Origin: an uncultured Eggerthellaceae bacterium
GTDB lineage: Bacteria > Actinomycetota > Coriobacteriia > Coriobacteriales > Eggerthellaceae
DNA length: 58,754 bases
Direction of reading: 5' to 3'
Assembly (NCBI GenBank): GCA_934645125.1
Contig: CAKUDT010000001.1
Coordinates: forward strand, 1 to 58,754
Translations under genes and position numbers: made by a program
Shown: one piece after another, positions 26,154 to 36,329 of the stretch
Layout of the letters: each line of letters begins with the position of its first letter
Numbering within the stretch: the first letter of the stretch is position 1
The notes under the pieces: generated by a model
Databases searched by the model: none
The model's input: the letters and a program-made list of their open reading frames with translations, nothing else
What the model was told of the DNA's origin: nothing

Positions 26154-26987
26154 CTACTTTACTGCCGTAATGATCACGCTTCCGCTTAGCGCATCAAGTT
26201 CGGGATTATTCTCCAGCGCCTCAAAGAAAGCCATGCGGTCTTTACGCTGAGCCTTTTCTTGCAGCACGTCAAGCGTGTAAAGCGTTTTTGATTCAATCTC
26301 TACCTGGGAAAACCCCGCATCAAGCAAGTGTTGGCGATACATATCGACAAGCTCAATACCATTCGTGCATCCCGTGATTCGCTCAAGCGGCTGAGCATAT
26401 TTTTCACTCGGAAGCGCACCGTAGAGCACAATATCGCTCACCACAAAACGCCCACCAGGCGCCAAAACGCGATACGCTTCGCTCATAACTTGCTGTTTTT
26501 TCTTGGCAAAGTTAATGACGCAATTCGACAAAACAACATCCACGCAAGCATTAGGAAGAGGAAGCTTCTCAATATTCCCCTGAACGAACTCGATATTATG
26601 CGCGCCAACAGCAGCTGCATTCGCCGACGCAAGCTCAATCATGGCAGGCGTCATGTCCACTCCGTACACATGACCGCCCTCACCCACCAGGCGTGATGCA
26701 ATAATTGCATCAATACCGCCGCCGCTTCCCAAATCAAGCACGCGCTCTCCTGGCTGCAGCAACGCTTTTGCAACAGGGTCTCCGCAGCCGCGACTTGCTG
26801 CCAGAGCAGATTCAGGCAGGTCTGAAAGGGCATCTCGCGCATAAAGAAACGCTGCTTCACCTGCAGAAAGAGCAGGTTCGCAACACGAGGAAGTACCAAG
26901 CGGGGCATCCTTCCCAAAAGTAGCAGCAACCTGCTGAGCAACCTGCGCATAATGTTCCGAAACCGATGATGGCTGCATATTCTCCAT
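26154..26987 (-). CDS. arsM: ArsM-type SAM-dependent (arsenite-like) methyltransferase
   Basis: 277 aa with a GGGAGA RBS. SAM motif VLDLGSGGGID. Four Cys contexts typical of ArsM: SSCCEP, RGCGDP, SNCVINF, ITGCTNG. Confidence 0.7.
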   Translation of the reverse strand: MENMQPSSVSEHYAQVAQQVAATFGKDAPLGTSSCCEPALSAGEAAFLYARDALSDLPESALAASRGCGDPVAKALLQPGERVLDLGSGGGIDAIIASRLVGEGGHVYGVDMTPAMIELASANAAAVGAHNIEFVQGNIEKLPLPNACVDVVLSNCVINFAKKKQQVMSEAYRVLAPGGRFVVSDIVLYGALPSEKYAQPLERITGCTNGIELVDMYRQHLLDAGFSQVEIESKTLYTLDVLQEKAQRKDRMAFFEALENNPELDALSGSVIITAVK

Positions 26988-27017
26988 TGTCTCCCAATCT
27001 GAATCTTCCCGCGTTCG

Positions 27018-34672: not shown

Positions 34673-34913
34673 GTTTTCCTCCTAAAATCCCGCAAGAGCG
34701 AAGGTGCCAAGGCGATGGTGTCATGCGCAAGTGGGCCGCCATGCAAGACCGGCGCATCAACCACGCATGCGGACCCCGCTTTTTAGCAGAGCCCGCATGC
34801 TTTTCAGGTGCGGTTGGTTGCGTTTGCGCTACCTACGCGATTGTCTACGTGGCGTTGCGCGGCAACACCTTTCGGATATCCCGTGCAGCAAGCCTTCGCA
34901 CAGCTCGCGCGGT

Positions 34914-36329
34914 TTACGCCTTGTTGACGTTCACATCCCAGCCAGACGTAATCCAAGCGGTCAGCTTTCCGTACTTGTCGGCGTAGCTCTTCTTCTCAAT
35001 CTCTTCGGCCGAGGGAGACAGAGCACCCATTTTCTCGATAGTTTCTTCGAGTTTCTTTTTCTTGTCGTCGGGCAATTTATCAGCAGAAATGTTGTAACCG
35101 TTGCCGGTGATATCGAAAGCGGCGCACTGATAATCGGGGCTGATCATATGGTTGCAAACAACCATTGCCGCTGCCTTTGCCGGAGAGTTCTTCATAATGA
35201 TGCTGTAATTCCAATAGCCAACAGAGGTATCCAGCATGTAAATGGCCGGATTTGCCATGTAGGCATCGGGTGTTGCAGCCACGCGCGATGCAACCGAGGT
35301 GCAGGTAGTGAACGTGCATGCCAGATCGCCCGCCTTCACATACTGCATCATTTCGGGTGCGGTTGCCACGTAAAGCGCGCCGTTGTCGCCCTGCAGCAAA
35401 TTCGGCGCAAGCTCCTTCAGGTAAGCCCAAGCGTACGCGGCTTTCTTGTTGAATGCTTCCTCGCTTGCCTCGGAAGAAGTTGACCACTTGTACCACTCTT
35501 CAATGTGGGCAAGAATTTTCTTACGGCGCGTTGCAGCATCATCTGCTTCGTCGTAGACGGTCTTCCAGCCACCATTGCCATCGTCGGTGAGCTCGGAGAG
35601 GATAGCCTTCACGAACAGCTGACCATGGAAACCGCCGTTGCCGGTCAAATCCATATAGGAAAACTTGCCGGGATTTTCCTTTACCCACGATGCAAGCTCA
35701 GTGAAGTTATGGGGCAAGCCTTTCACGCCGCCTTCCGTTGCGTTCCAGGCGATCTTTGAGCTCCATGCATCCTGCGAGTAAACAAGCGAAGGGCTGCAGC
35801 CCTGGAACGGAGCCTCCATATTATCGGTCGTGGCGGCACCGTCAAACGTTACATAAGGGTTGTCGTAATCAAGGTATTGGCTGTTCGGCAGGGATTTCAC
35901 CCAGTTTTCGCCGAAAACACCATCGGCTGCGCGAGCGCTCGCGAACATAGCGCCGGTAAACCAGAACATATCATAGGTAGGATCACCGCCGTTTTTGATA
36001 TCGGTATCGATCTTTTGGTACTCGGCAGCACTGTATTCAACGCACTCAAGCTCAATGTCGTACTTTTCCTTGACTTCTTGGGTCAGCTGCTCCCAGTTCG
36101 CCTGAACGTAAGCATCGGCGCCGCCAGCGCCCCACGCAAGAAAGACGACCCTTTGACCTTTGGCCTCTTCAAGAATTTCCTCCCATTTCATTTGGGCAAG
36201 ATCGGTGTCAACTTTCTTGTCCTCCGAGGCCGACGCACTGCCCGATCCAGAAGATGAACAGCCAGCAAGAGCAGCCGCTACCGCAGCAGAGGCTACAACA
36301 ACAAACGAACGACGAGTAATGTTTTCCAT
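34914..36329 (-). CDS. ABC transporter substrate-binding lipoprotein (extracellular solute-binding family 1-like)
   Basis: 471 aa with a GGAGGA RBS. Signal with RRSFVV and lipobox LAGC. Confidence 0.8.
   Translation of the reverse strand: MENITRRSFVVVASAAVAAALAGCSSSGSGSASASEDKKVDTDLAQMKWEEILEEAKGQRVVFLAWGAGGADAYVQANWEQLTQEVKEKYDIELECVEYSAAEYQKIDTDIKNGGDPTYDMFWFTGAMFASARAADGVFGENWVKSLPNSQYLDYDNPYVTFDGAATTDNMEAPFQGCSPSLVYSQDAWSSKIAWNATEGGVKGLPHNFTELASWVKENPGKFSYMDLTGNGGFHGQLFVKAILSELTDDGNGGWKTVYDEADDAATRRKKILAHIEEWYKWSTSSEASEEAFNKKAAYAWAYLKELAPNLLQGDNGALYVATAPEMMQYVKAGDLACTFTTCTSVASRVAATPDAYMANPAIYMLDTSVGYWNYSIIMKNSPAKAAAMVVCNHMISPDYQCAAFDITGNGYNISADKLPDDKKKKLEETIEKMGALSPSAEEIEKKSYADKYGKLTAWITSGWDVNVNKA

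Follow-up and report, generated by a model that had tools for sequence, protein, structure and literature searches.

Two radical S-adenosylmethionine (SAM) routes to carbon-arsenic bonds are known, ArsM acting with ArsS in one and with ArsL in the other, and ArsL is defined by a C-terminal arsenite-binding tail, RCCLKC (bioRxiv 10.1101/2024.02.01.577332). Type II biotin synthase (BioB), a 4Fe-5S enzyme, has auxiliary ligands that include the extra cluster ligand Cys52, and a dedicated sulfur donor could not be found for it (PMC10813225). LipS1 and LipS2 carry the radical SAM (RS) motifs C27/C31/C34 and C39/C43/C46 and the auxiliary ligands C230/C276/C277 plus H159 and C85/C276/C279 plus H178 (PMC9585515). 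The Sec (selenocysteine)-assisted organometallic (SAO) ATP-binding cassette (ABC) system is covered, with ArsM/AhpD and MbdU selenoprotein neighbourhoods, in a review (PMC13188914). Here we analyze an eight-gene operon at positions 26154-36329, minus strand, of a 58,754-nucleotide stretch of DNA (the window; contig CAKUDT010000001.1, positions 1 to 58,754, assembly GCA_934645125.1) from an uncultured Eggerthellaceae bacterium. It encodes an ABC importer, two paralogous radical SAM proteins (rSAM1 and rSAM2), a desulfurase fusion and an ArsM-like methyltransferase. Comparison loci in other genomes are designated L0xx, and representatives of 50%-identity protein clusters P0xxx.

Judged by its sequence, the operon belongs to none of the ArsM+ArsS, ArsM+ArsL or BioB/LipS systems, despite appearing to work alike. 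Like the arsenosugar route of cyanobacteria (ArsM and ArsS), it places an ArsM-type cysteine methyltransferase beside radical SAM enzymes. However, the window has no ArsS, its rSAMs are full TIM barrels without the DUF3641 tail, its methyltransferase falls in a short sister group just under the ArsM cutoff, and the desulfurase, MobA-like domain and ABC importer that form the core of the cluster have no known part in arsenosugar synthesis. The arsinothricin route likewise joins a radical SAM enzyme (ArsL) to an ArsM-type methyltransferase and yields a C-As product (bioRxiv 10.1101/2024.02.01.577332), whereas the window has two paralogous rSAMs lacking RCCLKC, and a desulfurase in addition. Biotin synthases, type II BioB above all, are the nearest sequence relatives of the rSAMs and share their fold, and rSAM1 retains the C188/C198 and R260/R268 positions; unlike BioB, rSAM1 lacks Cys97 and Cys128, has His at the Cys52 position, and carries YHAVRMREG in place of the substrate motif. 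With LipS1/LipS2 the window rSAMs share the pairing of two paralogues that work together, in LipS on sulfur (PMC9585515), but their RS motifs lie about 45 residues further in (C74-C81 and C78-C85) than in the published description of LipS, and no LplA, LipB or H-protein gene was found in the cluster neighbourhoods. An identity with LipS1/LipS2 was provisionally rejected, given that both RS motif position and genomic context differ.

The original prediction, made from the sequence alone, held that this arrangement is not a recognised system. The searched literature agreed, containing no match to a described pathway and no description of the cluster, with overlap with the neighbourhoods of Haft & Gwadz 2023 and Haft & Tolstoy 2025 unchecked. 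From the gene content we infer a chemistry of sulfur, selenium or arsenic, and tentatively favor an import-coupled organo-metalloid pathway, most likely for arsenic, that would use cysteine-derived sulfur.

Gene content of the operon and assignment of its products

The ORF listing gives eight same-strand open reading frames (ORFs), whose features are as follows.

34914..36329, minus: substrate-binding lipoprotein (SBP), 471 aa, YnjB/PRK11622-like (NCBIfam NF008633)
33806..34672, minus: permease 1, 288 aa (BPD_transp_1, E 2.6e-10)
32949..33809, minus: permease 2, 286 aa (BPD_transp_1, E 2.6e-13), with a 4-nt overlap with each neighbour
31759..32952, minus: ATPase, 397 aa, with a C-terminal TOBE domain (ABC_tran, E 1.3e-38; TOBE_2, E 2.3e-4)
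30704..31723, minus: rSAM1, 339 aa, CPKNCKFC, RS cluster C74/C78/C81, predicted full TIM barrel
29579..30580, minus: rSAM2, 333 aa, CPENCRFC, RS cluster C78/C82/C85, paralogue of rSAM1
27018-29471, minus: fusion protein, 817 aa, ATG start, in agreement with the database gene call
28734..29300, minus: MobA-like N-terminal alpha/beta domain of the fusion, about residues 58-246, weak PF12804 (NTP_transf_3) match
27018..28229, minus: SufS-type (group II) desulfurase/selenocysteine lyase domain of the fusion, about residues 415-817 (Aminotran_5, E 1.9e-111)
26154..26987, minus: ArsM-like SAM methyltransferase, 277 aa (Methyltransf_31; top family NF008823)

Successive intergenic spacings from the SBP gene on are 241, -4, -4, 35, 123, 107 and 30 bp. 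The eight minus-strand genes predicted at the outset, with short gaps or 4-nt overlaps, were therefore recovered, except that the gap behind the SBP gene is not short. A consensus promoter/terminator scan found no convincing terminator inside the operon, and the boundaries stand because the flanking genes, for an RluA-type pseudouridine synthase upstream and a convergent Ppx/GppA protein downstream, are unrelated. Pfam and NCBIfam calls (BPD_transp_1 twice, ABC_tran with TOBE_2, Radical_SAM twice and weakly, Aminotran_5 and Methyltransf_31) concur with the domains first read by eye, and the motifs cited then (CPKNCKFC, CPENCRFC, FSAHKAYGP, RSGAHCAHP, SSCCEP, RGCGDP, SNCVINF and ITGCTNG) are all present in the translations.

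rSAM1 and rSAM2 share 34% identity (E 1e-51) and are indeed paralogues. The AlphaFold (AF2) model of rSAM1 (pLDDT 95.7) is a full TIM barrel, and in Foldseek searches it best matched HydE (TM 0.79, E 6e-18), including HydE bound to its iron-carbonyl-cyanide substrate complex; type II BioB gave TM 0.81-0.84, bearing out the BioB-type layout that had been proposed. HydG, ThiH, BioB, PylB and MqnE were further structural matches, at 11-17% identity. When the rSAM family profile was searched against the PDB, biotin synthases led (1.4e-10, 3e-9 and 4e-7), followed by HydG, PylB and HydE. The fold resembles that of HydE genuinely, but identity is 15-17% and the scores lie far below cutoff, and genes for HydG, HydF or hydrogenase were found in none of the neighbourhoods examined.

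It had been allowed that homology searches might place the pair in a characterised family, but the curated cutoffs for BioB, HydE and PylB were all failed. Against TIGR00433 (BioB) the two proteins scored 32.0 and 32.6 bits and ten more family members 33-89 bits, with a cutoff of 225; against TIGR03956 (HydE) rSAM2 scored 26.1 bits (cutoff 254.6) and rSAM1 gave no match; and the PylB model gave 26 bits for a window rSAM (cutoff 348). Biotin synthase, HydE, PylB, ThiH, MqnE/C and CofG/H were rejected as identities, with scores far under curated cutoffs and differing substrate motifs. NCBIfam matches of the rSAMs (E up to 0.01) included no ArsL family, and neither C-terminus (...EGPSQGWIL in rSAM1, ...KMPDDVWV in rSAM2) carries the ArsL tail; neither protein matches TIGR04167 (ArsS) or has the Cys-rich DUF3641 tail. 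On these comparisons, both rSAMs are assigned to a small family of uncharacterised BioB/HydE-like enzymes. A HMMER scan of 1.84 billion 50%-identity representatives returned 480 clusters at E<=1e-3 and 125 at E<=1e-30, and the family is therefore small. About 1,000 close relatives of rSAM1 were found, and those that are named all come from Coriobacteriales/Eggerthellaceae and are labelled 'radical SAM protein', 'hypothetical' or, by JGI automatic annotation, 'biotin synthase'. Orthologues of rSAM2 form a separate clade and adjoin methyltransferase/desulfurase genes in relatives.

Auxiliary-cluster ligands were compared with those of type I (C97, C128, C188, R260) and type II BioB (C52, C138, C198, R268), and neither rSAM has the complete BioB set. 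Residues H64, C205, R265 and C276 of rSAM1 are invariant among 38 homologues. C205 occupies the C188/C198 position and R265 the R260/R268 position, which makes two of the four auxiliary positions; the invariant His64 occupies that of Cys52 in type II BioB, and Leu/Asn stand at C128/C138. In the alignment rSAM2 and its orthologues have no equivalent of Cys205, the BioB-type auxiliary-site cysteine. The absence of BioB auxiliary cysteines noted in the original prediction thus holds for rSAM2 but not for rSAM1, which retains the C205 and R265 positions. The dethiobiotin motif YNHNLD / YHxNxET is replaced by YHAVRMREG, in the family form YHA(V/L)R(M/L)(R)EG.

Several family members have unusual architectures or contexts. 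P0269, P0223 and P0225 carry a PadR-type winged-helix regulator domain, fused at one end or the other, and P0306 (labelled Methanomethylophilaceae archaeon) and P0309 bear DUF5714 or AhpC/TSA domains, DUF5714 being fused to the rSAM in the Methanomethylophilaceae relative. The family therefore extends to gut methanogens. In L015 and L017 (Ellagibacter metagenome-assembled genomes, MAGs; about 850-9750), five or six rSAM paralogues in five clades are interrupted by three opposite-strand genes, whose products are 319 aa long, VWA/metallopeptidase-like with DUF2201, and a MoxR AAA+ protein, respectively; L014 has this cassette as well, at a distance of 4 kb from its cluster. This MoxR/VWA (DUF2201) cassette was rejected as a pathway part, being on the opposite strand, present in only 4-5 loci and possibly an inserted element.

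The C-terminal half of the fusion proved to be of the SufS/CsdA type that had been proposed for it. Together with the Aminotran_5 match, it superimposes on E. coli SufS/CsdB (Foldseek TM on the target 0.92, E 1e-35), and the pyridoxal phosphate (PLP) Lys631 and catalytic Cys772 are invariant in 44 homologues. Its score against the SufS model TIGR01979 (415.8 bits) does not reach the cutoff of 475.1. The AlphaFold model of the 817-aa protein has a pLDDT of 85.8 and a pTM of 0.88, and the longest ORF, beginning at a TTG at 29588, would encode 856 aa. Compared with SufS/SufE(U), CsdA/CsdE and fusions of the molybdenum cofactor (Moco) sulfurase type, the protein shares the group II fold, PLP lysine, catalytic Cys loop and a fused second domain, and its sulfur would likewise be expected to go to a dedicated acceptor; it differs from SufS/SufE(U) and Csd in that its partners are MobA-like and, elsewhere, ArsM-like or rSAM domains, and that SufE, SufU and SufBCD were found neither in the operon nor among the scanned window ORFs.

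The N-terminal half, described earlier as unassignable by eye, does yield an assignment: by sequence it is probably a divergent domain of the MobA-like nucleotidyltransferase fold. The PF12804 match is weak (E 7e-5 in the window and 4e-4 in the 41%-identical L006 protein; 23.4-23.6 bits, gathering threshold 27), and PF12804 is precomputed for about half of 48 fusion homologues. The secondary-structure pattern in the AF2 model is Rossmann-like. An alignment of 21 sequences showed a degenerate nucleotide loop (VLAxxxGTTPLKV, where MobA has LAGGxxxRMG) and an acidic site, CDQxRIT, in place of the MobA D-x-P metal site. With this degenerate loop, no conserved Cys, and its absence from L030, L031 and L041 and truncation in L033, the domain is best regarded as an accessory. 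The top Foldseek matches listed for the full-length model were SufS structures throughout. Maturation of a selenium-dependent Mo-hydroxylase, to which a MobA/PucB-like domain and an SclA-like lyase might have pointed, was considered and rejected: PucB matched at E 0.004 only, XdhC, YqeB, YqeC and SelD are not nearby, and the domain is dispensable.

The methyltransferase scored 253 bits against NF008823 (ArsM), short of the cutoff of 263, and its top PDB relatives are Chlamydomonas ArsM (3e-33), human AS3MT and CmArsM. In HMMER alignments with 4fr0/4kw7, C35, C68, C158 and C207 correspond to C44, C72, C174 and C224 of CmArsM, so that the four ArsM cysteine contexts recognised at the outset are all retained. 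Among 18 cluster orthologues the equivalents of C72 and C174 are invariant and the N-terminal Cys nearly so.

The remaining four genes encode every part of a Type I ABC importer: the extracytoplasmic SBP, a pair of BPD_transp_1 permeases and the ABC ATPase. The SBP, as read from the translation, begins with MENITRRSFVVV...LAGCSSS, in which the twin-arginine motif TRRSFV precedes the lipobox LAGC. It matches NF008633 with E 1.9e-49 (168.6 bits, below the cutoff of 203) and has no Pfam match and no sequence relative in the PDB; orthologues at 40-64% identity occur in L011, L027, L041 and L047. The top NCBIfam matches of permease 1 are PhnU2 and molybdenum, sulfate and tungstate permeases, every one far under cutoff, and that of the ATPase is the phosphonate-type PhnT2 (299 bits, cutoff 457.7). 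Thiamine/hydroxymethylpyrimidine (HMP) salvage, brought to mind by NMT1 and YnjB/TbpA-like SBPs and by a Thiamine_BP gene in L040, was dropped because there is no thiamine pyrophosphate (TPP) riboswitch and there are no thi genes.

Recurrence of the gene set and natural fusions

A pattern scan with one genome per species gave 33 loci, about 30 of them with a fused or stand-alone desulfurase. Nearly all carriers are gut Coriobacteriia, of the Eggerthellaceae or otherwise, with hosts that include humans (Hadza) and ruminants, and the gene cluster is apparently limited to Coriobacteriia, mostly gut Eggerthellaceae. Two contigs, L028 and L031, are labelled Acutalibacteraceae and Bacteroidaceae, through possible binning error or horizontal transfer. 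Linkage was counted in the 14 loci having at least 4 kb on each side of the desulfurase gene: an ArsM-like gene lies within 3 kb of that gene in 10, at least one rSAM paralogue is present in 12 and at least two in 10, and an ABC importer is present in 9. It had been conceded that the genes might not be conserved together; the set recurs, in shuffled order, in 30 desulfurase-bearing loci of Eggerthellaceae and other Coriobacteriales, and these counts, with fusions that join its parts, support one conserved unit.

Gene order and orientation vary from locus to locus, and two unrelated importer types interchange, the YnjB type found in the window and an NMT1/TauT type that usually comes with a MacB/FtsX exporter and a DUF4418 membrane protein. 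L047 keeps the order of the window, SBP-permease-permease-ATPase-rSAM1-rSAM2-(rSAM)-fusion-methyltransferase, at 46-72% identity. The termite-gut locus L041 reads rSAM1-SBP-permease-permease-ATPase-rSAM-desulfurase-methyltransferase; its desulfurase is non-orthologous and of the EF2568/SclA type (TIGR01977, 390 bits, above the cutoff of 377), and a SARP-type regulator gene adjoins the cluster. Components were also found fused to one another, as listed here.

P0129, 1116 aa: MobA-SufS-methyltransferase; 14 cluster members on many contigs
P0139: MobA-SufS-methyltransferase; 3 cluster members
L033, cultured Ellagibacter isourolithinifaciens: SufS-methyltransferase in one 832-aa ORF
P0172: rSAM-rSAM; 12 members
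P0292: ABC ATPase-rSAM; 13 members
P0252: rSAM2-like-methyltransferase; singleton, possibly an assembly artefact
P0278: rSAM2-like-desulfurase; singleton, possibly an assembly artefact; the full cluster is present at its locus, L043

In Gordonibacter pamelaeae and others, rSAM1 stands with importer and exporter genes and the methyltransferase/desulfurase module is not within 10 kb; import and rSAM1 are therefore not strictly dependent on that module. There are therefore two modules, a core of rSAM and importer and a set of methyltransferase, desulfurase and rSAM2, which the window combines in one operon. These stand-alone cases, and L025, where the fusion is by itself within 10 kb on each side, would suit mere adjacency of a nutrient importer, a spare Fe-S desulfurase, an arsenic-resistance methyltransferase and two orphan rSAMs. 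We consider such an accident very improbable, as the co-occurrence survives rearrangement, importer swaps and a desulfurase swap, components are fused to one another in five different ways, three of which recur in 12-14 cluster members apiece, and the window genes have 4-nt overlaps and no convincing internal terminator.

The main competitor of the arsenic reading, unlikely in our judgement, is an arsenic-free one: sulfur or selenium insertion into, and S-methylation of, an imported organic molecule. The desulfurase would load persulfide or perselenide on the Cys-rich methyltransferase, which would methylate or relay it, and the rSAMs would activate C-H bonds so that S, SCH3 or Se could be captured, in a trans-acting version of BioB/LipS or MiaB/RimO chemistry that would give a thiol, methylthio or seleno metabolite or cofactor. 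The comparison with MiaB/RimO is one of function only, in that radical SAM C-H activation, mobilised sulfur and a SAM methyl group would be combined; MiaB and RimO do so in one polypeptide with an auxiliary cluster, whereas here these functions would be split over separate or differently fused proteins of unrelated families. In favor of this reading, the desulfurase is found fused to the methyltransferase and to rSAM2-like domains. Biotin synthases are the closest sequence relatives of the rSAMs, with C205, R265 and a His at the Cys52 position in rSAM1 (PMC10813225), and paired BioB-like rSAMs that insert one sulfur each are known in LipS1/LipS2 (PMC9585515). L041 exchanges SufS for an EF2568/SclA-type desulfurase/selenocysteine lyase (bioRxiv 10.1101/2020.02.07.939272), the fourth ArsM cysteine is lost in 4 of 18 orthologues, and many genomes have the rSAM1-importer module without an ArsM-like gene. 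This alternative accounts for the desulfurase fusions and the BioB kinship better than arsenic does, but not for the association with ArsS and ArsM: the ArsS-family genes and canonical arsM-arsS pair in or beside four related clusters (see below) and the retained ArsM-type cysteine constellation are left unexplained. In addition, rSAM2 has no conserved auxiliary-cluster ligands, and of the four BioB ligands rSAM1 keeps just two, its YNHNLD motif being replaced as well.

Arsenic-related neighbours and a proposed pathway

An arsS gene lies inside the L043 cluster, between importer genes; its product scores 376.8 bits against TIGR04167 (cutoff 300) and has Pfam DUF3641. Homologues lie beside the clusters of L014, L020 and L047, at 46-82% identity to the ArsS of L043/L047; these three calls rest on identity, plus DUF3641 in L047, TIGR04167 scoring being for L043 only. 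In one Eggerthellaceae subclade ArsS is joined by an AhpD-like CMD protein (112 aa, CPYC) in a two-gene module beside the cluster, with ArsS 77-82% identical among the three loci.

L014, 13577-14983: AhpD-like/ArsS module
L020, 6757-8283: AhpD-like/ArsS module
L047, 1003-2388: AhpD-like/ArsS module

Six kb downstream of the L047 cluster (about 19070-21000, plus strand), we found a canonical long arsM (YGCGSP, SNCVVN, GECLGG) followed by a second arsS, a pair that is absent from the gene list, in a stretch running into an N block; it adjoins genes for CobW and a stand-alone DUF5714 protein. Stand-alone genes for the Cys-rich DUF5714 occur in L020, L027 and L047, and DUF5714 matches the NCBIfam model 'metal-binding double selenoprotein MbdU' (1e-18) with 67 bits, far below the cutoff of 600. 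The original prediction had contrasted the operon with routes that pair ArsM with a single radical SAM enzyme. Although the window itself has no ArsS, this contrast needs revision, given the ArsS genes in or beside four related clusters. Taken together, these neighbours suggest that the cluster family is embedded in soft-metalloid biochemistry of the ArsM/ArsS type, the window being a minimal version without ArsS.

The pathway that we tentatively favor, an import-coupled one for an organo-metalloid and most likely arsenic, would run as follows. The Tat-exported SBP, two permeases and TOBE ATPase would import a small, probably anionic substrate. The cysteine thiolates of the ArsM-like enzyme would bind a soft trivalent centre, presumably As(III) as in CmArsM, which the enzyme would methylate with SAM. 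From cysteine (or selenocysteine) the SufS domain would form a persulfide on Cys772 and pass it directly to the methyltransferase and/or rSAM2; we infer direct hand-off because SufS-methyltransferase, MobA-SufS-methyltransferase and rSAM-desulfurase fusions exist and the operon has no SufE or SufU. rSAM1 and rSAM2 may act in succession, as CofH/CofG, MqnE/MqnC and LipS1/LipS2 do, generating carbon radicals for bonds of the C-As or C-S(e) type, made either on the imported molecule or with it; a BioB-like auxiliary site (H64, C205, R265, C276) may be present in rSAM1 and would be absent from rSAM2. The MobA-like domain would be an optional accessory for nucleotide binding or transfer. We would expect the product to be an organo-arsenical, methylated and possibly also thiolated, or its S/Se analogue, and related genomes may extend the pathway with ArsS (5'-deoxyadenosyl transfer to dimethylarsenite), the AhpD-like CxxC protein, DUF5714 and a MacB-type exporter. 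The specific proposal that BioB/HydE-like rSAMs relay physically with a desulfurase and an ArsM-type enzyme, building C-As/C-S (thio-organoarsenical) or C-Se bonds on an imported scaffold by a new logic, is a more doubtful one. If it is correct, gut Actinobacteria would make a dedicated organo-metalloid natural product or cofactor, and persulfide sulfur would for the first time be coupled enzymatically to arsenic or radical chemistry.

Several observations weigh against this arsenic pathway. A tblastn search with ArsS found nothing in the window, which also has no AhpD-like or DUF5714 gene, and arsR, acr3 and arsC were not among the annotated neighbours at any locus; none of the neighbours assigned by Pfam or homology is of an ars resistance family, some ORFs being unannotated. 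We know of no arsenic pathway that needs a desulfurase, nor of arsenical transport by either importer family. Six scored cluster copies of the methyltransferase, from the window and five other loci, reach 239.6-253 bits where ArsM requires 263, and Thr replaces the C224 equivalent in four of the 18 orthologues (L010, L022, L027 and L029), a position reportedly essential in CmArsM by mutagenesis; since scores stay below cutoff and the fourth Cys is lost in these four, the enzyme is better described as an ArsM sister group. The stand-alone rSAM1-importer module also means that rSAM1 may act on a purely organic substrate. The comparison loci are mostly MAG or metagenome contigs with mechanically called ORFs.

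The importer and the metal-related partners would also fit a system that takes up an organo-metal(loid) from the environment and degrades or detoxifies it, which we regard as improbable. The rSAMs would then be anaerobic C-As (C-Se, C-metal) lyases or remodelling enzymes, the methyltransferase and persulfide would capture, volatilise or thiolate the released element, and MacB-type pumps would export it in relatives. An importer belongs to the set, often with the exporter and DUF4418 alongside; the ATPase and permeases are nearest the phosphonate-type PhnT2 and PhnU2 (below cutoff), and Cys-rich, AhpD-like and peroxiredoxin-like partners recur. The SAO system, with an ABC importer and a MerB-like lyase and proposed organometallic substrates, offers a precedent (PMC13188914). 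It resembles the clusters in placing an ABC importer beside Cys/Sec-rich soft-metal-binding families, AhpD-like and ArsM-like proteins recur in the clusters, SaoX gives a weak match to the NMT1-type SBP of L043 (65 bits, cutoff 300), and DUF5714 matches MbdU; it differs in that these matches are far below cutoff and that the window has no MerB-like lyase and no selenocysteine in its proteins. Catabolism would be costly for enzymes of the BioB/HydE group, which usually spend SAM stoichiometrically, no ArsR or MerR regulator is present, the characterised ArsS and ArsM cases are biosynthetic, and the SARP-type activator beside L041 hints at secondary metabolism.

Metal-related genes around the clusters raise one more alternative, to which we give little credence: trace-metal acquisition through a sulfur-containing metallophore, which the enzymes, importer and exporter would make and recycle, or HydE/HydG- or NifB/NifS-like assembly of a metal-sulfur cofactor. 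The MobA-like domain and SufS would then recall nucleotide attachment and sulfuration of the molybdenum cofactor. The window has a DtxR/MntR-type repressor gene 1.7 kb and a FeoB gene 9.6 kb upstream of the operon, CobW (COG0523) and DUF5714 genes occur in L047, opine dehydrogenase and racemase genes within the L046 cluster, a ferritin-like gene next to rSAM1 in L040, and MoxR and VWA genes amid the Ellagibacter rSAM paralogues; the weak PucB/MobA similarity and HydE as top structural match point the same way. Such neighbours are sporadic, however, at one to five loci each and outside the core, and the cluster holds no conserved client metalloenzyme or scaffold. The MobA-like domain has neither a Gly-rich nucleoside triphosphate (NTP) loop nor a conserved Cys and is dispensable, and the ArsM-type methyltransferase and ArsS would be left without a role.

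Whichever product is made, the analysis defines a radical SAM family without an assigned reaction whose informative partners and fusions make it directly testable. Ellagibacter isourolithinifaciens DSM 104140 is a cultured carrier, and Coriobacteriia have published genetic tools (PMC9734109), so that experiments are feasible. The known organoarsenical (or organo-S/Se) biochemistry would reach past the two rSAM+ArsM routes and would come to include Actinobacteria of human and animal guts. To our knowledge, thiolation and methylation of arsenic by gut microbes change its toxicity through enzymes that are not known. A desulfurase tied to BioB-like rSAMs also bears on the source of the inserted sulfur in type II BioB and LipS1/2.

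Upstream region and flanking genes

36330..36992, minus: intergenic region ahead of the SBP gene, with promoter-like matches, palindromes and a hairpin

This region is probably the regulatory region of the operon, to judge from its sequence elements. Sigma-70-like promoter matches occur at 36473-36446 and 36598-36571; both are weak (9 of 12 positions), and neither is significant singly because the scanned region gave eight promoter-like sites where 6.7 are expected by chance. Four AT-rich palindromes of the form ATAGGAGGAAAT-N12-14-ATTTCCTCCTAT lie at 36545-36825, their eight half-sites, ATAGGAGRAWW, being confined to this interval in the window (0.06 expected). Between the palindromes sits a GC-rich terminator-like hairpin (36672-36691), and L007 and L009, both close relatives, are the only other loci to keep them. 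Folding of the upstream region as RNA gives a z-score of -7.7. One possible role of the palindromes is that of an operator array, bound by the DtxR-like or LuxR-type regulator encoded nearby; an element of the repetitive extragenic palindromic (REP) type is another. A riboswitch or leader ahead of the operon or related clusters was rejected, no Rfam family reaching its gathering score and permissive searches returning only noise. Upstream of the stand-alone rSAM1-importer module of L001 (Gordonibacter pamelaeae), two inverted AT-rich elements of about 40 bp were seen at 9700-9905 (TTGTAAGACATA ... TATGTCTTACAA), without an Rfam match.

The regulator genes near the operon, for the DtxR/MntR-type repressor (37995-38465, minus, 1.7 kb upstream) and a LuxR-family protein (38532-40142, minus), are on its strand; the FeoB gene is at 45894-48404 (plus). 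Downstream of the operon lie a TelA toxic-anion (tellurite) resistance gene at 19505-20797 (minus, 5.4 kb away) and a glutamate-cysteine ligase gene at 15159-16640 (plus, 9.5 kb away), which suit a thiol/chalcogen theme and are not conserved neighbours at other loci.

At two comparison loci with otherwise different arrangements (L006, 11761-12831; L041, 1635-2981), mnmA, for tRNA 2-thiouridylase, adjoins rSAM1. This could be remnant synteny or reflect a common sulfur donor; with two loci only, the adjacency was rejected as a feature of the system. An opine (octopine/nopaline-type) dehydrogenase gene and an Asp/Glu-racemase-like gene inside the L046 cluster (3931-5964, minus) recall opine-type metallophore genes. 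The window also contains, at 50143-54745 (minus), a cytochrome c maturation block (CcmF-like, CcmA-type ATPase, CcmB and CcmC-like) that is unrelated to the operon.

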